Of a stretch of 64,000 nucleotides of DNA, positions 2,102 through 59,901 are shown piece after piece. The notes beneath the pieces were generated by a model, which searched no databases, was not told where the DNA came from, and was given only the letters and a program-made list of their open reading frames with translations. The position numbers and the translations under genes are program-made. Numbering within the stretch: position 1 is the first letter of the stretch; the number at the start of each line of letters is the position of its first letter. Source of the stretch: Acidobacteriota bacterium (GTDB taxonomy: Bacteria > Acidobacteriota > Vicinamibacteria > Fen-336); the NCBI GenBank assembly GCA_032127875.1, contig JAQBHI010000049.1, forward strand, positions 40,150-104,149. The letters run 5' to 3'.

Positions 2102-3227
2102 ACAGGGACTCCATCGCGCGGGCGTACTGAGCGCGCGTGTATCGTACCGCCACGCGGCTGCGTCCGGCCGCTGCCAGCCGATCTCGTAACTCCCGGTCGC
2201 CGAGCAAACGCACGACCGCCTTCGCCAGCGAGGCCGGGTCGCCGGTCCGGAAATGAAGGCCGCTGCGCCCGTCTTCCACGATCTCGGCAGGCCCCCCGGA
2301 GTCCGACACGGCCACGGCGACGCCCGCAGCCATGGCTTCGACGACGACGAGTCCAAACGGCTCCCGGAGCGAGGGGCAGACCACCACGTCGCAGGCGGCC
2401 ATCACCGCGGCGATGTCCGGAACGAAGCCGGTGACGTGCACGCTCGCCTCGAGGCCGAGCTTCTGCCGCAGCCTCAGGACGCCGTCCCTGACCCGGCTCA
2501 CGTGGGGCAGCACGCCGGCATTCAGAGCCCCTCCAACGATCGCGAAGGCCACCTCGGGGAGGCTCGTCTGGATCTCGCGCGCTGCCAGGAGGAAGGTTGC
2601 GTGGCCCTTCATCGCGTCGAAGCGGGCGAACATCGCGACGAGCGGCACGGCCTCGGGGATGCCCAGGCGGAGCCGCACCGCGCGCGACCCCTCGCTGGGA
2701 GCGGCGGGATCGATCCCGACCGGGACCACCTGCGTGCGGGCGGTCAGCTCCGGTGCAAACGCCGCGATTTCGGCGCGCTGCGCCTCCGAGAAGGCAAGCA
2801 CCCGGGCCACAAGGCGGCGTGCCGCCATCCGCCACACAAAGCGTCGCGGCGCCTCGCCAAGATAGTTCACCTGGTAGACGAGCCTCGCTCCCGCGCGAGC
2901 AGCAGGAACGGCGAGCAGCAGCCCGAGCGGATCGGACACATGCAAGAGATGGACGCCTCGCTCCAGCACCAGCTTCCGGAGCCGAAGAGCGACCCGCGCG
3001 TGGCGAAGCCACACCCAGGGGGCCGCCAGGTGCCAAAGCGAGCGAGCCGAAAACCGGATCACGAGGGACTCGACGCCGGCCTCGCGCAAGCTGGCCACGA
3101 GCGGGCCATCGCTCGCGAGCACCACGAGAGGTCGAAACCGCGAGGTGTCGAGGCCGGCGAGCAGATGCAGCAGGGCGTTCTCGGCCCCGCCCAGTTCCGC
3201 GTACAGGTTCAGGTAGAGCACCGACAT
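2085..3227 (-). CDS. Glycosyltransferase family 4 (GT-B fold)
   Basis: N-terminus LYLNLYAELGGAENAL and C-terminal GT1/GT4 donor-binding region (EPFGLVVVEAMAAGVAV). Start taken at ATG 3227. Alternative upstream starts exist at 3257 and 3338. Confidence 0.8.
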   Translation of the reverse strand: MSVLYLNLYAELGGAENALLHLLAGLDTSRFRPLVVLASDGPLVASLREAGVESLVIRFSARSLWHLAAPWVWLRHARVALRLRKLVLERGVHLLHVSDPLGLLLAVPAARAGARLVYQVNYLGEAPRRFVWRMAARRLVARVLAFSEAQRAEIAAFAPELTARTQVVPVGIDPAAPSEGSRAVRLRLGIPEAVPLVAMFARFDAMKGHATFLLAAREIQTSLPEVAFAIVGGALNAGVLPHVSRVRDGVLRLRQKLGLEASVHVTGFVPDIAAVMAACDVVVCPSLREPFGLVVVEAMAAGVAVAVSDSGGPAEIVEDGRSGLHFRTGDPASLAKAVVRLLGDRELRDRLAAAGRSRVAVRYTRAQYARAMESLYASLA

Positions 3228-3288
3228 TGTTTCGCGGGGGCTCGCGCTCTCGTTCATCGGAGCATGCAGTCCGGGCACCCGCCCGAGT

Positions 3289-3987
3289 CTATACAGCCTC
3301 GGACGAGGCTGGCCACACCCGGCGGACGATACGCTCACGGTGGCCGGTCACCGCGACCGCGGCCACATAGCCTGGGCCGACAGGCAGGTCCGCTACTGCC
3401 AGACTCGTGATGCGCCGAAAGCCAGGGGGCCAGTCTTCGATCCCGACCTCGATCTTGTCCAGCCCATGCCCGATCCCCACGCCCAGCGCCTTCAGGCAGG
3501 CTTCCTTGCGGACCCAGCAGCGAAAGAAGGCTGTGGCCCGAGCTGTTTCTGGAAGGGCACGAAGCGCTTCCGCCTCTTTCGTGGCGAAGAAACGGTTGGC
3601 GATCGCCGTACTGTCACGGCCTGCGCAGACCCTCTCGATGTCCACTCCCGGCTCGTCGCGGCAGGTGAATGCGAGCAGGGCCCGGTCACCCGAGTGAGAG
3701 ACGTTGAAGCAAAGCTCGCCGGCGCCAGTCCTGTCCAGGACCGGCTTCCCGTGCGGCCCCTGCGCAAACAAAATGGACTGAGCCGAGGCTCCGAGGTAGC
3801 GGGCGAGAAGCGCGCGGAGCGCGCCGCGCACGACCACGAAGCGTCGGCGCGGTTCGTCGGACCGAAACGCCGCGGCTCGTTCCAGCTCGTCAACCGAGAG
3901 GCGAGCCGCGGCAGCTGCGGCGACATCGCCCAGGGCCACATCCCAGACGTGTACATCGCGTCCCTCGGGCCGGGCGAGGCCGCTCAC
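3289..3987 (-). CDS. 4'-phosphopantetheinyl transferase (Sfp-type)
   Basis: PPTase motifs (GKPVL, FNVSHSGD, WVRKEACLKALG). GTG start overlaps the stop of the NRPS-like gene (GTGA coupling). Confidence 0.75.
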   Translation of the reverse strand: MSGLARPEGRDVHVWDVALGDVAAAAAARLSVDELERAAAFRSDEPRRRFVVVRGALRALLARYLGASAQSILFAQGPHGKPVLDRTGAGELCFNVSHSGDRALLAFTCRDEPGVDIERVCAGRDSTAIANRFFATKEAEALRALPETARATAFFRCWVRKEACLKALGVGIGHGLDKIEVGIEDWPPGFRRITSLAVADLPVGPGYVAAVAVTGHRERIVRRVWPASSEAV

Positions 3988-9196: not shown

Positions 9197-11679
9197 CGGC
9201 GCGCCCCCTGGCCGGAGAATTCGGGAGCGACCGAGCTGGCGCCGCGATGACCCTCGGGGACAGGCGCGGTGGCCGGATCGAGAGCCTCTACCGCGACGCT
9301 TTCCGGGTATTCGAAGCGCGGCAGCTGCGGGGCGCGATAGCGGCCCTCGAGCGCGGCCACGATTTTCTCCGGTGTGATGGGCACCTCGTCCACGCGCGCG
9401 CCGAGCGCTTCGTAGATCGCGTTCGCCACGGCGGGGATCACCGGAAGCAGCGGCCCCTGGCCACACTCCTTGGCGCCATACGGCCCTTCCGGATCCAGGG
9501 TCTCGACCAGGATCGAGTCGACCGGCGGCATCTCGAGCGTGGTGGGGCTCTTGTAGTCGAGCATCGACGGGATCTTGTGCAGGCCCTTGCGAAAGACCTG
9601 CTCTTCCATCAGCGCCTCGCCAAGCGCCATGTAGACGGAGCCCTCGATCTGGCCCAGCACCAGCATCGGGTTCAGGGACCGGCCGATGTCGTGCGCGATC
9701 CACACCTTGTCCACGCGGACGATGCCGGTCTCTTTGTCGGCCGAGAGCTCCACGGCCGCGGCGGAGTAGGAATATGTCGGCGTCGGGCCCACACCCGAGC
9801 CCTTCCATTTCGCGACGCTCCTGGGCGCCTTGTACGAGCCCACGGACCCGAGCGTGCCGTGCGCGGACTCGGCGAGCACGACGGCCTCCGCGAAACAGAG
9901 CGAGCGGCCTGGGTCGGCGGCGTCGAAGATGCGGCGTCCGCTCGCCCGCAGGCGGCCGACGGAAAGCTCGAGCTTGCTCGCTGCGGCCTCGAAGATCAGC
10001 TTACGCAGCTTGCGCGCGGCCTGGATCGCCGCGTTGCCGGTCATCAGCGTGACGCGCGACGAGTAGGAACCGAGGTCCACGGGCGTCAGGTCGGTGTCGG
10101 CGGTCACGACGCGAATGTCCTCGAACCCGATGCCAAGCTCCTCGGCCACGATGTAGGCGAGGATCGAATCGGAGCCCTGGCCGATGTCCGTCGAACCGCA
10201 GAACACCGTGACGCCGCCGCCGCGATCCACTTTGATCTGCACGCCCGACTGCGGCATGGCGTTCCAGTAGATCGGCAGGCCAGCGCCCGTCAGGTACGCG
10301 GACGCCGCGATCGCGAGGCCCCTGCCGGGCCCGAGCTTACCGTGCTTCTCTCGATAGCCGCTCTTCTCGATGACTCGCTCCAAACAGGCCTTGAGCCCGA
10401 TCGTGCGCACGTACATGTGGTTGGCAGTGACCGTGTACGGCTCGAGGCAGTTGTCGATCCGCCACTGCGCCGGCTCGAGGCCCAGATCCTCACAGAACTT
10501 GTCGATGTGGCATTCGAGAGCAAAGCGTGGCTGAGGCGTTCCGTGGCCACGCTTGGGTCCGCAGGGCGGCTTGTTGGTGAAGACGCGGACGCCCTCGAAG
10601 CGATAGCGCGGGATCCTGTAGGTCACCGTCTGCAGCGCGCCGGTGTAGTAGAGACTCGCGACGCCATAACTGCCATACGCGCCGCCGTCGAGGGCCGTCT
10701 TGAAGTGCATCGCCGTGATCGTGCCGTCCTTCTTGAGGCCGGTCCTCACCCACATCTTCACGGGATGGCGTCCGCGATGGCAGTAGAAGACCTCCTCTCG
10801 CGTCAGCGTCAGTTTCACCGGCCGGCCCGTCTTCATCGAGAGCTTGCAGGCCACGATCTCGTGGCCGAACGGGTCGCTCTTGCCGCCAAAGCCGCCGCCG
10901 TTCGGGCAAGCAATCACGCGCAGCTGCGAGGGCGGCAGCTCGAGCACCTTGGCCGCCGCGCGGTGCACGTAGTGCGGCGTCTGGGTCGAGGACCACAGCG
11001 TCAGCTTCCCGTCCGCGCCCGCCGCGGCGACGCACGCGTGCTGCTCCATCGGCAAATGCGTGTTGCCCTCGAAGTAGAAGTTGTCCTCGCGAACGTGCTC
11101 GGCCTCGGCAAAGCCCGCTTCGACGTTGCCGAAGTCGAAAGACACCTCCTTGTGGACGTTGCCGCGCGGGCCGTACTCGTGGATCCGCGCCTCCCGAATT
11201 TGAGGGGATGCGGCTTCCAAGGCCCCCCCGCCGGCTAACGCCTCATCAATAGACATGAACGCCGGCAGCAGCTCGTACTCGACTTCGATCAGCCCGCAGG
11301 CGGCCTCGGCGGTCTCCTCGTCGATCGCCGCGACCGCCGCGACCGGATCCCCGACGAAGCGGACCTTGTCGATGCACAGCGCGTGCTCGTCCTGGCTGAC
11401 CGGCAGGATGCCGAAGGGAATCGGCAGCTCGCTGCCCACGAGCGTTGCGAGGACGCCATTCAGCGCTGCGGCCCTCGAGACGTCGACGCGCTTGATCCTG
11501 GCATGGGGATGGGGGGAGCGCAGCAGCTTCGCGAAGGTCATGCGCGGCAGCACCAGGTCGTCGGCGAACACGGTCTGGCCGGTGACCTTAGCCGCGGCGT
11601 CGACCTTGAGCAGCGACCGGCCGATCACGCTCAGCGGCTCGCCCGCCTCGCCGGGCGTGGGAATTCGCGGATCAGCCAC
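9193..11679 (-). CDS. Molybdenum hydroxylase molybdopterin-binding large subunit (xanthine dehydrogenase / aldehyde oxidase family)
   Basis: Ald_Xan_dh_C-type N-terminus (IGRSLLKVDAAAKVTGQ), GGGFGGK motif, about 830 aa. Most plausible start is GTG at 11677-11679, which overlaps the small-subunit stop. The ORF-track ATG is at 11742. Confidence 0.85.
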   Translation of the reverse strand: MADPRIPTPGEAGEPLSVIGRSLLKVDAAAKVTGQTVFADDLVLPRMTFAKLLRSPHPHARIKRVDVSRAAALNGVLATLVGSELPIPFGILPVSQDEHALCIDKVRFVGDPVAAVAAIDEETAEAACGLIEVEYELLPAFMSIDEALAGGGALEAASPQIREARIHEYGPRGNVHKEVSFDFGNVEAGFAEAEHVREDNFYFEGNTHLPMEQHACVAAAGADGKLTLWSSTQTPHYVHRAAAKVLELPPSQLRVIACPNGGGFGGKSDPFGHEIVACKLSMKTGRPVKLTLTREEVFYCHRGRHPVKMWVRTGLKKDGTITAMHFKTALDGGAYGSYGVASLYYTGALQTVTYRIPRYRFEGVRVFTNKPPCGPKRGHGTPQPRFALECHIDKFCEDLGLEPAQWRIDNCLEPYTVTANHMYVRTIGLKACLERVIEKSGYREKHGKLGPGRGLAIAASAYLTGAGLPIYWNAMPQSGVQIKVDRGGGVTVFCGSTDIGQGSDSILAYIVAEELGIGFEDIRVVTADTDLTPVDLGSYSSRVTLMTGNAAIQAARKLRKLIFEAAASKLELSVGRLRASGRRIFDAADPGRSLCFAEAVVLAESAHGTLGSVGSYKAPRSVAKWKGSGVGPTPTYSYSAAAVELSADKETGIVRVDKVWIAHDIGRSLNPMLVLGQIEGSVYMALGEALMEEQVFRKGLHKIPSMLDYKSPTTLEMPPVDSILVETLDPEGPYGAKECGQGPLLPVIPAVANAIYEALGARVDEVPITPEKIVAALEGRYRAPQLPRFEYPESVAVEALDPATAPVPEGHRGASSVAPEFSGQGARR

Positions 11680-17938: not shown

Positions 17939-18409
17939 CTACTCGGCAATCTGCTGGGCCAAATAGTTCTCGATGCCGATCTCCTCGATCTGGTGGAGCT
18001 GCGCTTCGAGCCAGTCGATGTGCTCCTCCTCGCTCTTCAGGATTTCTTCGAGGAGCGAACGGCTGCCGTTGTCGCTCCTTTCGGCACTGAGGGCGATGCC
18101 GGCGTTGAGTCGCTTCACGGCGTCGTATTCGAGCTGCAGGTCGAACTCATGCTGCTCCTTGACGTCCTTGCCGACCTGCACCTTCATGTACTTCTGCATG
18201 TTCGGCTGACCATCGAAGTAGAGGATGCGGTCGATCACGAGTTGAGCGTGCTTCATCTCCCCGAGGGATTCCTTGTAGGTGTACTCGGCCAGACGCTTGT
18301 AGCGCCAGTTCTCTCGCATCCGGGCGTGAATGAAGTACTGGTTGATCGCCGTCAACTCGGCGCACAGCACGTCCCCCAGAACCGCGATGACGTCAGCATT
18401 CCCTTTCAC
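17939..18409 (-). CDS. bfr: Bacterioferritin
   Basis: Near-canonical Bfr sequence (INQYFIHARMRENW ... EMKHAQLVIDRILYFDG ... EEEHIDWLEAQL). GTG start with GGAGG 6 nt upstream. Confidence 0.9.
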   Translation of the reverse strand: MKGNADVIAVLGDVLCAELTAINQYFIHARMRENWRYKRLAEYTYKESLGEMKHAQLVIDRILYFDGQPNMQKYMKVQVGKDVKEQHEFDLQLEYDAVKRLNAGIALSAERSDNGSRSLLEEILKSEEEHIDWLEAQLHQIEEIGIENYLAQQIAE

Positions 18410-18479
18410 GACTCACCTCCGCCGAAAGACCTGGCCAGGATTCTAGTCCGAACGGCGAGGCTTTTTTTCTGGGAGAAGG

Positions 18480-21129: not shown

Positions 21130-23160
<2,031 letters not shown>

Positions 23161-23201
23161 GAGGAGGTCCAAGGTTCAGTCTCCTTCGTCCGAAAAAGGG
23201 G

Positions 23202-31526: not shown

Positions 31527-32309
31527 TCAGAGCTCGATGGCGGGTCCCTCGAGCGGAACTGGCCTGTCGCCTCCGGGTTGCTCGCCGTCGAGGTGCAGCC
31601 TGTTGACCACGTCGAACGCCAGCGTCTGGCGCGCGATGCTTTCGATCTTCACGCGTTCGACTGGGCTCTGGACGAACCCGGTGAGCGTCACTCGGCCGCG
31701 ATCCACGATGATCCGAATCGGCGGGTTGGCCCGGTGGGCGTACTGGGCAAAGTCGAGACTGCCATAGACCTGTGCGTAGATCTCCCGCCGCAGCCGATCG
31801 TCGAAGAGCGAGAGTGACTGCACGCTGATCCGGTTATCGATGGCGAGCACGCCGGCCACCTTCGCCACGGCCGCGTCGAGATCGCTCTTCCGGTTCGGGC
31901 GGTACACGGAGCCAGCCAGCGTCACGACGCCGTTGACGACGCCCAGCTCGACGCTGTCGAAGACCCCGTAGTAGGGGTAACGCAGGATGGCGCTGCGGAC
32001 GTCCTTGGTTATCTGCACGTCGGTGCGCTCTTCCGGAACCACGCGCAGGCGATTCTCGACGAGCTTGGATTCCTTGCGCGCGGAGCGCTCGGCCTCGCGG
32101 CGCGCGGCCAGCGTTGTGACCGCCCCGTCGAGGATTACGACGCCCTGCGCGGCGCTGACTTCGACCGCACCCTGGCTCACGGACTTGGACTTCGCGAGGC
32201 GCTCGAGAACGCGCTGCCTGACGTCATTGTCATCGGCTGTGGCCGGGAGCGCGGCCAGGAGGAAAATGGCGGCCGCCGCCCCCGTCATGCGATGAAGAGT
32301 GTGGTTCAT
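31527..32309 (-). CDS. BON-domain protein (OsmY-like), secreted
   Basis: Start at internal ATG (MNHTLHRMTGAAAAIFLLAALPATA signal peptide) preceded by GAGGGAA. Two BON repeats. Confidence 0.75.
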   Translation of the reverse strand: MNHTLHRMTGAAAAIFLLAALPATADDNDVRQRVLERLAKSKSVSQGAVEVSAAQGVVILDGAVTTLAARREAERSARKESKLVENRLRVVPEERTDVQITKDVRSAILRYPYYGVFDSVELGVVNGVVTLAGSVYRPNRKSDLDAAVAKVAGVLAIDNRISVQSLSLFDDRLRREIYAQVYGSLDFAQYAHRANPPIRIIVDRGRVTLTGFVQSPVERVKIESIARQTLAFDVVNRLHLDGEQPGGDRPVPLEGPAIEL

Positions 32310-32485
32310 GATTCCCTCTGCTCTGAGGCCAGGCCCCCTTCGGCGGCCTCTGCGCCTCACTCTGGAGCAAGTTGCTTGCCAGTGCCCGCACGACGGCAAG
32401 TGCGTGAGCCACATCGCCTTCACATCTCTTGACGAGTGCGCGCTGTCCGCGGGCGCGGACAGGCAGCGGACTTGCCGGGCGTGGG

Positions 32486-32923
32486 CTACAAATCAGCCAG
32501 TATTTCTTCGGGGTGGGCGGCGGCGTTGACCTTCGGGTAGGCCTTCTTCACCTTGCCGTCCGGCGCGATCAGATAGCTAATGCGCTTCGCGTGCTGGGCG
32601 GTGGCGTCGTCAGCGGCTCCATACGCCAGCCCAATGGCGCGATTCGCGTCGGATAGCAGCGGGAAGTCGAAGCCGAATTTCTGAGCAAAGACGGCCTGGT
32701 CAGGGACCGTGTCGAAGCTGACGCCCAGCACCTGCACGCCCTTGTCCCCGTACTGCCGAATCCGGTCGCGGAACCCGCAACCTTCGGCCGTTCAACCGGG
32801 CGTGTCGGCCTTCGGATAGAACCAGAGAACGACGCTCCGGCCACGATACTGGGAGAGCCGGATCAGCTTGCCCGTGTGGTCGCGCACCTCGAAATCCGGC
32901 GCCTCGGCTCCGACCTCCAGCAT
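32486..32923 (-). CDS. bcp: Bcp-type peroxiredoxin with in-frame TGA (predicted selenocysteine) at the peroxidatic position
   Basis: ATG at 32921-32923. Translation is MLEVGAEAPDFEVRDHTGKLIRLSQYRGRSVVLWFYPKADTPG-U-TAEGCGFRDRIRQYGDKGVQVLGVSFD..., and it runs in frame into ORF-track entry 32486..32737. The TGA at 32792-32794 replaces the Cys of the conserved PGCT motif. The resolving Cys five residues later is retained. Confidence 0.75.
32764..32782 (-). other. Candidate bacterial SECIS hairpin downstream of the UGA
   Basis: mRNA GGUUGCGG-GUU-CCGCGACC (8-bp stem with one G-U pair) beginning 10 nt after the UGA. The apical loop carries G and U and lies about 18 nt from the UGA. Confidence 0.45.
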
Positions 32924-32944
32924 AGCGAGACCCCCAGCACCCGA

Positions 32945-33544
32945 TTATACGGCGAGGCTGTCGCCGCGGGCCGACCAGCGCAGCGACCATACGCAGGCCA
33001 CGTCGCCCTTGTTCTGGCAGTAACGCTCCTCGGCGCTCACGGACCCGCCGGTGAGACATTCGATGGAGCGGCGGATGTAGCCCTTGGCGGAGAGGCAGTA
33101 GATCGGATCGTTTTCGGGGTAATCGCTGAAGGAGATCTCGCCGACGCTGAAGTTGATGCGGCGATAATCGGCGCGGCCGAAGTTGTGGAAGCGCCGGTGC
33201 TCCTCGGCCATGCGCGCGAGAAAACCGTGCACGTTGATGAGCGCCGCGTGCTCTCCAAGCCAGAACGTACGCTGCTGCGCAGAAGCCTCACCCAGACGCT
33301 CGTACAGGAGTTCGTCACCCTTGCCAAACTGCGTGGCGATGGCCCGGTCCAGGCGGATCAGCGTGCCGAACGGGTACCAGGTGTTCCTGTCGACGCCTGC
33401 GAGTCGGCCACGATCCTGGGCGGGAAGCGCCTCGAGGACGCGGGCGATCGCGTCGGACCCGTGCTCCCGTTTCAAGTACTCGAAACGGGACACGACGATC
33501 TGTCCGTGCAGGTGGGGCCCCCTGAGATCCGATGGCTCGCTCAT
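32945..33544 (-). CDS. Hypothetical protein with C-terminal Cys-containing region (possibly DUF2378-like)
   Basis: 199 aa. Coding-like composition. Its stop is 22 nt before the selenoprotein start on the same strand. Confidence 0.5.
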   Translation of the reverse strand: MSEPSDLRGPHLHGQIVVSRFEYLKREHGSDAIARVLEALPAQDRGRLAGVDRNTWYPFGTLIRLDRAIATQFGKGDELLYERLGEASAQQRTFWLGEHAALINVHGFLARMAEEHRRFHNFGRADYRRINFSVGEISFSDYPENDPIYCLSAKGYIRRSIECLTGGSVSAEERYCQNKGDVACVWSLRWSARGDSLAV

Positions 33545-50177: not shown

Positions 50178-50639
50178 CTACCAGCGGTGATAGGCCGGGT
50201 GGTCGGGGCCGACAGCGACGAACGTGCCGCGGCACCTAGCGCAGAGCTTGCCGCCGGCCTGCAGCGTGCCCTCGACCACGGCGCGATTGCCCTCGGCCTC
50301 GACGACGCACGCGCGTAGCGAGATCGGGCCGCTGATCGGCGTCGGGCGCTTGAGCTTGATGGCGTAGTCGGCCGTGACCGTGCTGGGGAGCGCCGCCTTC
50401 GGGCCCGCGGCTCGCATCAGGTGCATCGCTGCGGCCCAGTTGCAGTGGCAGTCGAGCAGCGCACCGATGATCCCGCCGTTCAGCACGCCGGGGAATGCCT
50501 CGTGGTGCGCCTCGGGCGTCCACACGGCCACCAGCTCGTCGCCTTCGGCGAAACTGCGAATCCGCAAACCCTTCGCGTTGGCGGGGCCACAGCCGAAGCA
50601 GGTGCTCTTCGGCGCGTACTGCTCTTGCAGGCTCTCCAT
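50178..50639 (-). CDS. PaaI/YbdB-type hotdog thioesterase
   Basis: Hotdog core with GxxxGGxxxxLxD (VLNGGIIGALLDC). Confidence 0.75.
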   Translation of the reverse strand: MESLQEQYAPKSTCFGCGPANAKGLRIRSFAEGDELVAVWTPEAHHEAFPGVLNGGIIGALLDCHCNWAAAMHLMRAAGPKAALPSTVTADYAIKLKRPTPISGPISLRACVVEAEGNRAVVEGTLQAGGKLCARCRGTFVAVGPDHPAYHRW

Positions 50640-50651
50640 GAGCCCGAGATT

Positions 50652-51026
50652 CTAGTAGAGCTTCACGTCCATGTTGTCGGCGGCGATGTCCGTGAGGTCG
50701 ACGATCGCCGCCGCGTTCACGCCGATCGCGATGGCGATCGACTCGGAGATCTCTTCGCGGCTCGCGCCGAACTTGAGCGCCTTCTTGACGTGACCCTCGA
50801 GGCAACCCTGGCATTTGGCGGCCAGGCTCGCGGCGATCGCGATCAGCTCCTTGGTCTTGCGGTCTATGACCGAGGGCTTGTAGGTCTCCTTGTAGAACTG
50901 GAAATAGATCTCGCGGAAGCGCGGATCGACCATGGTGTAAGAGCTGCTCTGCTCCGGAGGCTTGGTCGCCACCCCATTGTCCTCTTCGGGGAAGGGCACA
51001 TGGTGTTTCTTGTCTTCTGGGCTCAC
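50652..51026 (-). CDS. Carboxymuconolactone decarboxylase / AhpD-like protein
   Basis: AhpD core with CxxC...H (AAKCQGCLEGHVK). Confidence 0.75.
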   Translation of the reverse strand: MSPEDKKHHVPFPEEDNGVATKPPEQSSSYTMVDPRFREIYFQFYKETYKPSVIDRKTKELIAIAASLAAKCQGCLEGHVKKALKFGASREEISESIAIAIGVNAAAIVDLTDIAADNMDVKLY

Positions 51027-51961
51027 CGGAGCTCTCCTATGCTAGACGGCGCTACGGATTCGAGCAGCGAGTTGACCGCCGCTTCGTAAGCTGCTGTACC
51101 GTCGCGGTACGCATGGCCGTGTCCTTGGCTCGTGATCACGAGCGTCTTCGCCGAAGGCCCTGCGGCCTTCGCCAGGTCCGAGGCGATCTCCGGCGGCATC
51201 CGCTCGTCGCCCGTGCCGCCGACGAAGAGCGCGGGCCGAGAGCCCAGCAGCGACGCCGCTCTCAGGACGTCGAGCCCATCGGGATCGAAACCCGCGCGGC
51301 GGCCCATCCAGAAGACCGCCACGTCCGAGGTGGGCCAGGCGGGGACGAGCCGAAGCCACCAGGCGAAGGTGCGGAACAGCGCCAGGTGATGGCGCGCCGT
51401 GTCGCGCAAGCCGCGAAAGCTGCTGTCGCAGACGAGGCCCACGATCTGCGGATCCTCGGCCGTCGCCAGGGTCGCCGCCGCGCCCCCGAACGAGATCCCC
51501 CAGGCCACCACCGGGCCCGCCAGCCGCGAGCGCGCGAAGTCGGCGGCCCCCAGCACGTCGTTGCGCTCGTGGTAGCCGAGACTGCGCACCATTCCCCCGC
51601 TCTGCCCGTGACGCCGCAGGTCGAAGAGCAGCGCGTTCCACCCCAGCTGGTTCAGGAAGGGCGCCTTCTTGACCATCTCGAGGCGCGAGCGGTTCAGGCC
51701 GTGCACCAGGACGACCGTGCCCCTCGCCGCCGGAGCCGGAACCCACCAGCCCGAAAGCGACACTCCATCGCGCGCCTTGAAGCTCACGTCCTCGGAGACG
51801 AGGCCCAGCGTCGCGGGCGTGATCCCCTGGTTCTCCGGGTCCTTCATCTGGAAGGTGCGGATCGTGAAGACGCTGGCGAGGAAGTAGGGCAGGAAGCCGA
51901 AGACGAATCCGAGCAGCGCCAACAGCAGCACGAGGAGGAGACGGCGCAGCCATTTCCTCAA
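51023..51961 (-). CDS. Alpha/beta hydrolase, membrane-anchored
   Basis: N-terminal TM helix. Nucleophile elbow GISFGG. ATGA coupling to the AhpD-like gene. Confidence 0.75.
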   Translation of the reverse strand: MRKWLRRLLLVLLLALLGFVFGFLPYFLASVFTIRTFQMKDPENQGITPATLGLVSEDVSFKARDGVSLSGWWVPAPAARGTVVLVHGLNRSRLEMVKKAPFLNQLGWNALLFDLRRHGQSGGMVRSLGYHERNDVLGAADFARSRLAGPVVAWGISFGGAAATLATAEDPQIVGLVCDSSFRGLRDTARHHLALFRTFAWWLRLVPAWPTSDVAVFWMGRRAGFDPDGLDVLRAASLLGSRPALFVGGTGDERMPPEIASDLAKAAGPSAKTLVITSQGHGHAYRDGTAAYEAAVNSLLESVAPSSIGELR

Positions 51962-58217: not shown

Positions 58218-59333
58218 TCAGGAATCCTGTGCGTACTCCTTGAGCACCGCGACGCACCGATCGATATCGGCCTCGTTGTTGTAGAAGTGCGTCGAGATGC
58301 GGATGCCCTGGCGCTTCTCGGTCACGAGCACGCCCTGGCGACGCAGGGCGCGGGCGCAGCCGGCGGGATCGTCGGCCTCCACGAGCGTTTCGCCCGAGCG
58401 GTGGGCGCCGCCGGGAGACAAGCAGGCGAAGCCTGCCTCGGCGAGCGACGCAGTCAGATAGGCGTTGAGTTCGAGGACGCGCTGCGCGATGTGCGGGATG
58501 CCGATGCCGAGGACGTAGTCGAGCGCCGCACCCAGTGCGAAGATCGCCCCGAAAGGTGGGCAGCCCAATTCCGCCCGTTCCGCCGAGGCAAGCACCTTGT
58601 ATGCCCGGTTGTCGAACTCGAACGGATTCTCGACGCTCATCCAGCCCAGATTTCGGGGTGGACGGCGTGCCAGAAGCGCGCGGCTCATGTACACGAAGCC
58701 CGCCCCGTAGCCCGCGCACAGCCACTTGTGCCCGGCGCTGGCGAGGGCGTCGATCTGGCACTTCTTCACGTCGATCGGAAAAGCCCCGACACTCTGGCTT
58801 CCGCAGACCACGAAACTGCGACGCCCCTTTATCGCGCCGAAGGCCTCGAGATCCTGGCGGCAGCCGTTCGAGAATTGCACGTGGCTCAGGACCAGGCTCG
58901 CCGCCTTCGGCGCGTCGGCGAGCGAAAACGACTCGATGTGGAGGATGCCCTCGACCGCGGGCACGAAATGCAGGGCCGCACCGCGATGCAGCCACGGCAG
59001 CGTGACCGTCGGGAACTCGAGCTCGTCGGTGAGTACGGCCCCGTCGTCGGCCAAGAGGTCGGCGATCAGGTTCATGCCCACGGAGGTGTTGTCGACGAAC
59101 GCGATCTCGTCGGGCTCAGCGCCGATCAGGCTGGCCGCCTGCACGCGTGCGTGGGCGCGGCGCGCGAGCCACAACTCCCAGGCGCGATCCCCCGACTCTT
59201 CGAGTTCCCGGTAGAACGCGCTCACCGCTTCGCGCACCGGCTTCGGCGTGGGGCTACCGGCCGCGGCGTTCAGGTAGACGTAGCGTTCGGCGGCCGGGAA
59301 GTCCTTGCGCAGCTCGTCCCAGGCAGGGGCCAT
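58218..59333 (-). CDS. Class V aminotransferase (cysteine desulfurase / selenocysteine lyase-like)
   Basis: AAT-V fold with PLP-lysine motif SAGHKWL. Start at ATG 59333. The ORF-track 5' extension to 59708 is antisense to the tRNA gene. Confidence 0.75.
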   Translation of the reverse strand: MAPAWDELRKDFPAAERYVYLNAAAGSPTPKPVREAVSAFYRELEESGDRAWELWLARRAHARVQAASLIGAEPDEIAFVDNTSVGMNLIADLLADDGAVLTDELEFPTVTLPWLHRGAALHFVPAVEGILHIESFSLADAPKAASLVLSHVQFSNGCRQDLEAFGAIKGRRSFVVCGSQSVGAFPIDVKKCQIDALASAGHKWLCAGYGAGFVYMSRALLARRPPRNLGWMSVENPFEFDNRAYKVLASAERAELGCPPFGAIFALGAALDYVLGIGIPHIAQRVLELNAYLTASLAEAGFACLSPGGAHRSGETLVEADDPAGCARALRRQGVLVTEKRQGIRISTHFYNNEADIDRCVAVLKEYAQDS

Positions 59334-59425
59334 TGCCGAGAGGATAGCGTAAACGGCGGCGCTGTGATCCGGTCCTTGGGGCGCGACGGCCACGGCAGAC
59401 TCGCATACACTTAAGATCCGCTTCG

Positions 59426-59513
59426 GCCGGAGTGGCGGAATGGCAGACGCCCCGGACTCAAAATCCGGTACTTCGCAAGGAGTGTGCGGGTTCAAGTCCC
59501 GCCTCCGGCACCA
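59426..59513 (+). tRNA. tRNA-Leu (anticodon CAA), type II with long variable arm, CCA encoded
   Basis: Manual fold: 7-bp acceptor stem GCCGGAG/CUCCGGC, anticodon loop CU-CAA-AA, 17-nt variable arm, T-arm GCGGG-UUCAAGU-CCCGC, discriminator A plus CCA. Confidence 0.85.
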
Positions 59514-59559
59514 CTGGCGGTCGAGCAGCCGCCGGTTTCGGGGCCGCTTGGGTAGGCTA

Positions 59560-59901
59560 GTGGAGATCACTGCAGAACAGGTCGCCAGCGTCCTCGTGCT
59601 CTCGCCGCAGGGGCGCCTCGACAGCAACACCTCGCCCCGGCTCGAGGAGCGTGCGTTTCTGGAGATCAGCGGCGGGACCACGCGCCTGGTGGTCGACCTG
59701 TCCGCCATCGACTACATCAGCAGCGCTGGAGTGCGCGCGTTTCTCGCCGTGGCCAGAAGACTCAAGGACCCGCCTGCCCGCCTCGTGCTGTGCGGCATGG
59801 CGCCCAGCGTCAGGCAGATCTTCGATCTCGCGGGGTTCACGGCGATCTTCGCGATCGAGGGCATGCGCGACGACGCCCTGGCCCGCGCCGCCGGGCCGTG
59901 A
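59560..59901 (+). CDS. STAS-domain anti-sigma factor antagonist
   Basis: SpoIIAA-like (LSAIDYISSAGVRAFLAV ... VRQIFDLAGF). GTG start. Confidence 0.7.
   Translation: MEITAEQVASVLVLSPQGRLDSNTSPRLEERAFLEISGGTTRLVVDLSAIDYISSAGVRAFLAVARRLKDPPARLVLCGMAPSVRQIFDLAGFTAIFAIEGMRDDALARAAGP

Follow-up and report, generated by a model that had tools for sequence, protein, structure and literature searches.

The DNA considered here, a stretch of 64,000 nucleotides from contig JAQBHI010000049.1 of an Acidobacteriota bacterium (assembly GCA_032127875.1; hereafter the window), carries on its minus strand a bcp gene whose reading frame is interrupted by a single in-frame UGA codon. Very probably, the two parts of the frame form a single functional gene, whose product would be a thioredoxin-dependent peroxiredoxin of the Bcp/PrxQ type with a UGA-encoded selenocysteine (Sec) in place of the peroxidatic Cys. 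The frame is intact on both sides of the UGA, the UGA lies at the codon of the catalytic residue, the same UGA is conserved in other species, and the hairpin that follows it is constrained in a UGA-dependent manner. The initial annotation of the window had proposed a Sec-containing Bcp with a selenocysteine insertion sequence (SECIS), and this core claim is supported by the TGA found in 61/80 orthologues, by the frozen codons of the hairpin, and by at least 120 metagenome contigs.

The interrupted bcp frame and its product

The coding sequence extends over 32486..32923 on the minus strand, which applies to all bcp coordinates given below, from the ATG at 32923..32921 to the TAG at 32488..32486. 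It counts 145 sense positions including the TGA, with U at residue 44. Upstream of the TGA, the frame reads MLEVGAEAPDFEVRDHTGKLIRLSQYRGRSVVLWFYPKADTPG, and downstream it continues as TAEGCGFRDRIRQYGDKG and then as VQVLGVSFD... up to the TAG; the peptide directly 3′ of the TGA is TAEGCGFRDRIRQYGDKGVQVLGVSFD... in the same frame. The TGA is the sole interruption of these 145 codons, with no frameshift and no further stop. The mechanical list of open reading frames (ORFs) cuts the gene in two, into a piece of 43 amino acids (32792..32923) and a piece of 83 amino acids with a GTG start (32486..32737), and the same split is present in the public gene calls of two near-identical contigs. The claim that standard ORF calling breaks this gene is thereby confirmed.

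The protein in which Cys is placed at codon 44 matches the Pfam family AhpC-TSA (PF00578) at 3.5e-34, with 117.8 bits against a cutoff of 26, and the alignment runs from end to end (residues 4-127 on profile positions 1-123 of 124). Such a match over the whole domain, together with the intact frame, bears out the description of the gene as a full-length Bcp of 145 amino acids. The Cys-substituted product also matches Pfam Redoxin (1.4e-23), and the nearest solved structures are the Xanthomonas campestris BCP entries 5iph and 3gkk (~5e-22). In the alignment to the latter protein (YPKDSTPGCT), the TGA faces the catalytic Cys of PGCT, which is where the initial annotation had placed it. The active-site motif PxxxTxxC is read as P-KAD-T-PG-UGA at residues 37-44, and the proposed Sec codon, at 32792..32794, thus takes the peroxidatic position of PKADTPG-U-T (PxxxTxxU). 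The conserved active-site Arg is also present, since the Arg of AKRISYL is aligned to the Arg of IERSTFL in the X. campestris protein. The predicted resolving Cys, five residues past the TGA, is found as Cys49, whose UGC codon (32777..32779) lies within the 5′ arm of the putative SECIS stem. The resolving Cys of Escherichia coli Bcp is likewise located at +5.

The best matches among the NCBIfam models are those of PrxQ and Bcp, and both remain under their equivalog cutoffs: 114.7 bits vs. 260 for PrxQ (NF053650) and 103.5 bits vs. 140 for Bcp (NF006960, PRK09437). The cutoff of the PrxU model NF040737 (peroxi_PrxU) is not reached either (56.4 bits vs. 270), and this match covers only a part of the 233-position model. 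Such sub-cutoff scores place the window protein, as judged from its sequence, in a distinct clade of the Bcp/PrxQ family, of which it is a member at the level of Pfam.

Genome-wide reassignment of UGA is rejected, because among the ordinary stops of the window TGA is used most often (20/34 screened ORFs), and UGA is therefore not read as sense in general. When the window was screened for other in-frame TGA codons with coding-like flanks, bcp alone passed, the other candidate being an antisense shadow. The GC content stays near 0.68 throughout the window, and its profile shows no island.

Conservation of the UGA and of the hairpin behind it

The scan of one genome per bacterial species provides 80 collinear full-length orthologues, with 57-91% identity. 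The codon aligned to residue 44 is TGA in 61 of them and TGC or TGT in 19, so that the in-frame TGA is aligned with the conserved catalytic Cys of the Cys homologues and forms with it a Sec/Cys pair. Within Acidobacteriota, the TGA carriers belong to Vicinamibacteria, Thermoanaerobaculia and Polarisedimenticolia, with one representative each of Blastocatellia and Terriglobia, and include metagenome-assembled genomes (MAGs) assigned to 'Marinacidobacterales'. Within Myxococcota, they comprise Myxococcus sp., Pyxidicoccus fallax DSM 14698, Archangium gephyra and others, and one further carrier is a Dongiaceae MAG. Together with the window this makes 62 TGA carriers, 61 of which have no other stop and none of which has an alignment gap; the frameshift or indel signature, named in the initial annotation as the mark of a pseudogene, is not seen. 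The TGA-bearing homologues of other organisms are conserved on both sides of the TGA, and their mean identity to the window is 70% over the 43 codons before it vs. 60% over the 101 codons after it.

Residue 49 varies among the TGA carriers, being Cys in 47, Arg in 10, Ile in 1 and Lys in 1 (12/59 non-Cys). The carriers with Arg, Ile or Lys at this position are presumably 1-Sec enzymes. The Sec and Cys forms alternate among close relatives: at 70-90% identity to the window protein, the orthologues L003 to L007 read, in this order, TGA, TGC, TGA, TGC and TGA. On the neighbour-joining tree, at least 9 changes between Sec and Cys are needed. The association of UGA and hairpin is therefore replicated, as it would have arisen or decayed repeatedly.

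The core hairpin, GGUUGCGG-GUU-CCGCGACC, is located at 32764..32782 and is formed by the codons of G48-C49-G50-F51-R52-D53. It contains 8 bp within 19 nt, has a predicted energy of -11.9 kcal/mol and presents the apical loop GUU, or GGUUC when the closing pair opens. The position and the pairing of this SECIS-like element stand as first described, whereas the spacer, given there as ten nt, measures 9 nt. An extended hairpin over 32756..32787, with a lower stem CCGAA/UUCGG and a 3-nt internal loop (GGA), reaches a minimum free energy (MFE) of -17.2 kcal/mol. Most other lineages of the alignment do not conserve the lower stem, which is therefore probably specific to this lineage or incidental. 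As the stem of the core hairpin includes the UGC codon of Cys49, the same nucleotides would serve both the active site and the RNA signal. In the variants with Arg49 (CGC), a U-G wobble of the stem becomes a C-G pair.

The strongest evidence for the function of this hairpin comes from the synonymous positions. With the first base of the TGA as reference, the third positions +14, +17, +20, +23, +26 and +29 have entropies of 0.60, 0.25, 0.12, 0.12, 0.36 and 0.60 bit in the TGA carriers, vs. 1.82, 0.95, 1.94, 0.98, 1.72 and 0.83 bit in the Cys carriers. The flanking third positions range over roughly 1.2-1.7 bit in the former and 1.5-2.0 bit in the latter. The mean pairwise identity at the six hairpin positions is 0.87 for the TGA carriers and 0.40 for the Cys carriers, with flanking values of 0.50-0.55 and 0.35-0.39, respectively. 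The sequence GGTTGCGGGTTCCGCGAC, followed by C or A, is present in 48/62 TGA carriers and in none of the Cys carriers. Among the sequences which encode GCGFRD, the consensus codon is used at five or more of the six synonymous sites in 49/49 TGA carriers and in 0/11 Cys carriers (Fisher 3e-12, uncorrected for phylogeny). The predicted hairpin energies follow the same division, most TGA carriers lying at about -9 to -14 kcal/mol and the Cys carriers at 0 to -7 kcal/mol. An example is the nearest Cys relative (L004, 86% identity), which reads GGATGCGGCTTTCGCGAT and forms a hairpin of just -3.4 kcal/mol. Across 56 sequences, the stem is paired in 94.9% of the cells, vs. at most 50% in the controls with slid partners.

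The same dependence is observed in metagenomes. The query CCNGGNTGHACNNNNSARGGTTGCGGGTTCCGCGAC, where H stands for A, C or T, permits TGA, TGC or TGT before the exact 18-mer of the hairpin, and every one of the at least 120 contigs which contain this 18-mer has TGA. Among the matches listed, 94/95 contigs with complete context have an otherwise open frame of 145 codons, and these represent 93 distinct proteins. The pattern argues that the hairpin is under selection at the RNA level, and only when the codon is UGA.

Not all TGA carriers have the consensus hairpin. It is absent from L038, a Blastocatellia MAG (match 3127-3561, GGCATTGGGTTCCGTGATC), and from L057, a Terriglobia MAG (match 10001-10435, GGCAAAGGATTCCGTGATC). 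Both can form another hairpin, GGRUUC-CGUGAUC-GAAUCC, located 6 nt further downstream, which is also possible in five 'GRGFRD' carriers ending in ...GATCGAATCC. This structure may be an alternative SECIS register. In the hairpin stretch, L038 is nearly identical to the Cys forms L028 and L034, apart from the TGA.

Proposed selenocysteine insertion and its alternatives

The proposed function follows the established bacterial system of Sec insertion. When the ribosome arrives at the UGA (32794..32792), the hairpin at 32782..32764 would bind SelB carrying Sec-tRNA(Sec), with the apical loop presenting its G-U 17-19 nt from the UGA, and Sec44 would be inserted in place of termination. By analogy with Bcp enzymology, the selenolate of U44 would attack the peroxide and be converted into a selenenic acid. 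Cys49, located on the same helix, would resolve this intermediate to a selenenylsulfide, and its reduction by thioredoxin would recycle the enzyme. The dependence on SelB, the incorporation of selenium and the catalytic cycle are thus predicted from the known systems.

The published description of bacterial SECIS (bSECIS) elements comprises an apical loop of 3-9 nt with G in at least one of its first two positions, an upper stem of 4-16 bp, a distance of 16-37 nt from the UGA to the apical loop, and an MFE of -7.5 kcal/mol or lower (PMC13188914). The window hairpin falls within all of these ranges, with the 3-nt loop GUU, 8 bp, 17 nt and -11.9 kcal/mol, which agrees with the earlier claim of a SECIS-compatible distance and of G/U in the loop. 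It also resembles the SECIS of E. coli fdhF, whose sequence UGA CACGGCCCAUC GGUUGCAGGUCUGCACC (UGA-N11-GGUUGCAGGUCUGCACC) is confirmed in the fdhF of 5419/5426 E. coli genomes. In both cases, a hairpin within the coding sequence directly follows the UGA, the 5′ arm begins with GGUUGC, the loop presents GGU, the 3′ arm ends with ACC, and the 3′ end of the hairpin is located at nt 31 (the U of UGA being 1). The two elements differ in length, the hairpin taking 17 nt in E. coli and 19 nt in the window, and the loop G-U of the window lies 2 nt nearer to the UGA. The stem of the E. coli element contains a bulged U. At this place the window has a U-G wobble, and the likeness is one of sequence only.

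Peroxiredoxins containing Sec are an already known kind of selenoprotein. A family with the TxxU motif has been catalogued in bacteria since 2001-2005; the Sargasso Sea selenoproteome has 43 of its sequences under COG1225, a survey of 2016 counts it in 78 organisms, and a 2026 review (PMC13188914) includes it as well. Selenoproteins are recorded in Acidobacteria, and three Sec-peroxiredoxins occur in Anaeromyxobacter dehalogenans, a member of Myxococcota (PMC1794560). The window gene shares with this prokaryotic family the AhpC/TSA domain (PF00578), the UGA at the peroxidatic position (PxxxTxxU) and the widespread Cys homologues, the published entries being likened to it by family description. 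COG1225 is the Bcp-type COG. Most carriers found here belong to soil Acidobacteriota (Vicinamibacteria, Thermoanaerobaculia and others) or to Myxococcaceae/Archangiaceae, and the papers searched include none on Sec-peroxiredoxins in Vicinamibacteria or in Myxococcus and its relatives.

According to the review cited above, an experimentally shown Sec-peroxiredoxin is PrxU of Eubacterium (Peptoclostridium) acidaminophilum (Sohling et al. 2001, via PMC13188914). Like the window protein, it has a UGA-encoded Sec at the peroxidatic position, but it belongs to another peroxiredoxin subfamily, while the window protein is nearest to the PrxQ/Bcp models and to the BCP structures. With the Cys-type Bcp/PrxQ proteins, such as E. 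coli Bcp and X. campestris BCP, the window protein has in common a length of ~145-160 amino acids, the PGCT site, the conserved Arg and, by analogy, the thioredoxin-dependent chemistry; it differs in the peroxidatic residue, which is Cys in those enzymes and not Sec. The window gene would therefore be placed on the Bcp/PrxQ side of the family and not as a PrxU equivalog.

Several observations weigh against a Sec-inserting bcp gene. The closest full-length proteins in the database (68-86% identity) are all Cys forms, and so are the best 120 full-length matches throughout. This results from the splitting of the UGA forms by gene callers, and since the nearest database proteins are Cys forms, the Sec and Cys forms seem to interconvert among near relatives. 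As a single sequence, the 66-nt region of the window folds just marginally better than its shuffles (z = -1.98), which is suggestive and short of significant; the case is made by the comparative data. The covariation within the stem is weak, with one double-change pair that is equalled in 39/500 shuffles, because the stem hardly varies. The argument thus rests on the UGA-linked synonymous conservation and not on compensatory changes.

The comparison to known elements and the search for Sec machinery add to these points. The spacer between UGA and hairpin is 9 nt in the window vs. 11 nt in E. coli fdhF. At gathering thresholds, the Rfam scan of the window returned no SECIS match, and the best match of a permissive scan over 32600..32950 was RF01989 (SECIS_3) at 32744..32797(-), with 12.3 bits vs. 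63 and E = 9.7. The covariance models, to which the initial annotation had referred, thus give the hairpin no support. Many bSECIS elements resemble neither each other nor those of E. coli (PMC13188914), and the failure in Rfam is therefore not strong counter-evidence. Since the curated bacterial SECIS models are narrow, the scan neither supports nor refutes a SECIS. A search confined to the 64-kb window and ~2 Mb of related loci gave no tRNA-Sec, SelA, SelB or SelD. ARAGORN reported no tRNA-Sec in the window or in the 202 fetched loci, and neither E. coli SelA and SelB (from MG1655) nor E. coli SelD had a tblastn match in the 2.03 Mb of window and fetched loci. Motif scans of the window for the SelB-type G1 box and for the SelD motif gave nothing relevant. 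The sole tRNA of the window is a tRNA-Leu(CAA) at 59426..59513 (+). It is overlapped by a minus-strand ORF at 58218..59711, which is probably spurious there.

A sequencing or assembly error that changed TGC to TGA in the window contig has next to no probability. The difference from a Cys codon is a single base, and the window is an assembled sequence from an uncultured organism; yet the contigs L001 and L002, assembled independently from the runs ERR5010721 and ERR5010711, hold an identical bcp with the same TGA. Within ~600 aligned bases, their only difference from the window is a single-nucleotide polymorphism (SNP), which falls into a hairpin loop 3′ of the bcp stop, and the 91%-identical orthologue from another MAG, L003, likewise has TGA. 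The presence of the same TGA in independently assembled contigs makes a random error very unlikely and contradicts this possibility, which the initial annotation had raised. A pseudogene, with a Cys-type bcp inactivated by a nonsense change from TGC to TGA and a hairpin that arises by accident from the codons for GCGFRD, would take only a single substitution. The nearest database proteins being Cys forms, the preservation of GCGFRD in Cys forms (one of which has a hairpin of 7-8 bp and -7.2 kcal/mol) and the second stop in a paralogue elsewhere (L027) are in line with it. What makes a pseudogene very improbable is the TGA at the same codon, with intact frames, in 61/80 species, together with the purifying selection upstream of the TGA, the freezing of synonymous sites in TGA carriers only, the TGA in all metagenome contigs with the hairpin, and a window gene free of frameshifts and extra stops. 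The output of the gene callers would instead be matched by two separate products, a peptide of 43 residues and a C-terminal fragment re-initiated at the GTG at 32737, with no recoding. Such a division is hardly credible, as the 18 codons from the UGA to the GTG (TAEGCGFRDRIRQYGDKG) are in frame, are conserved at the protein level in all orthologues, and include the resolving Cys and the active-site helix; the piece of 83 amino acids would lack both catalytic residues, and the constraint on the hairpin would have no role. The intact TGA frames in many species and the conservation before the TGA are therefore incompatible with both a pseudogene and re-initiation.

The comparative data show recoding and a hairpin, and not the identity of the inserted residue. 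The same hairpin could thus accompany a non-canonical suppressor which recodes the UGA to Cys or to another standard residue. This suppressor would be a tRNA(Cys) of the selC* type that works with a SelB-like factor, or else a nonsense-suppressing allo-tRNA of Acidobacteria. Opal suppressors of the tRNA(Sec)-like tRNA(Cys) type are reported for some anaerobes, and allo-tRNAs which may act as nonsense suppressors for Acidobacteria (PMC5389517); the Sec machinery not seen in the window and the 2.03 Mb of related loci is also consistent with this explanation. It is nevertheless considered improbable, with either candidate tRNA, because the signal spans phyla and fits the SelB-type SECIS model. 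The selC* tRNAs are described in Firmicutes, Thermodesulfobacteria, Nitrospirae and Proteobacteria, and not in Acidobacteria (PMC5389517), while the UGA and hairpin are common to Myxococcota, Acidobacteriota and others, a distribution more in keeping with the universal SelB system. The hairpin agrees both with the bSECIS model and with the fdhF SECIS, and the insertion of Cys gives no obvious benefit for which UGA would be repeatedly kept over UGC.

With Sec insertion as the preferred explanation, a broader reading can be put forward tentatively, at somewhat less than even probability. In this reading, Sec-Bcp would be the majority form (61 of the 80 nearest species representatives) in largely aerobic soil lineages, namely Vicinamibacteria and other Acidobacteriota, Myxococcus, Archangium and Pyxidicoccus, and would always be split and hence invisible in databases. 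One near-invariant, fdhF-like SECIS would lie over the codon of the resolving Cys across phyla. The clade would have changed between Sec and Cys at least 9 times, with decay of the hairpin following each change to Cys. If this is true and has not been described before, it would modify the notion that selenoproteins are seldom retained by aerobes, and the lineages would offer a natural series for studying the Sec/Cys exchange and the dual constraint on protein and RNA. The practical consequences concern annotation. In all records examined, bcp is mis-annotated as fragments of 43 and 83 amino acids, and the Cys-only picture of the protein database biases any protein-level view of the family. A corrected annotation alters the predicted antioxidant repertoire and would imply selenium dependence in abundant soil Acidobacteriota and Myxococcota. 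No new mechanism is involved; what the gene offers is a SECIS demonstrated with unusual clarity by UGA-linked conservation of synonymous sites, and a case of an RNA element that shares its nucleotides with active-site codons.

Neighbouring genes and additional copies

The gene upstream of bcp, at 32945..33544 on the minus strand, is a called gene for a protein of 199 amino acids with no Pfam match on record; its similarity to V4R is below threshold (20.7 bits vs. a cutoff of 31). Its stop lies 21 nt before the bcp ATG, and it is possibly co-transcribed with bcp. The called gene downstream, at 31527..32309 on the same strand, encodes a protein of 260 amino acids with three BON domains (Pfam BON, 7.2e-28, 3 stretches) and starts 176 nt past the bcp stop, beyond a GC-rich hairpin. 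The latter is an inverted repeat, CUGUCCGCG-CC-CGCGGACAG, at 32443..32462 (-), located 24 nt after the bcp stop and lacking a U tract, with a predicted fold of -19.0 kcal/mol over 32468..32438. Its loop holds the C/G SNP that distinguishes the window from the contigs L001 and L002. Having no T run, the repeat was not called by the terminator scan; a role as a transcript end or as a stabiliser is possible.

The synteny of bcp with both neighbours extends no further than close, Vicinamibacteria-like relatives, namely L003-L006 and a few metagenome contigs, in which Sec and Cys forms of bcp alike have them at their side. Scans for promoters and terminators added nothing informative on a joint transcript. 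The 'operon' with the BON-domain and hypothetical proteins, as initially annotated, therefore stands as adjacency; it does not hold as a conserved functional unit, given the 176-nt downstream gap with its hairpin and the limited synteny.

Further away in the window, the same-frame ORF junctions at 17939, 21130 and 50652 are TAG stops between separate genes. The minus-strand gene at 50652..51041 encodes a carboxymuconolactone-decarboxylase/AhpD-like protein with a CxxC motif (KCQGC), a plain Cys form, and a thioesterase-like ORF (50178..50651, -) follows in the same frame after its TAG. AhpD-like proteins are a known selenoprotein family. At 10-15 kb from bcp, there are a ferritin-like gene of the bacterioferritin type (17939..18412, -), which ends with TAG before the next same-frame ORF, and an ORF resembling by eye a membrane H+-pyrophosphatase (21130..23175, -), which is also separated by TAG; neither is recoded.

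Additional copies of the gene were observed in other genomes. A distant AhpC/TSA paralogue with ~39-41% identity is located 6-7 kb from Sec-Bcp in L045 (17459-17866) and L049 (15733-16161). Its peroxidatic codon is likewise TGA, and another hairpin, CGCUCGAAG-CCCACAA-CUUCCAGCG, is possible behind it. In seven other genomes (L036, L039, L058, L064, L069, L078 and L080), the counterpart of this paralogue reads TGC or TGT. The 'Marinacidobacterales' chromosome OZ240210.1 (9.2 Mb) contains four copies of the TGA type, L011, L020, L022 and L027. The last of these has a second in-frame stop at codon 14, and this copy may be decaying or may start later.

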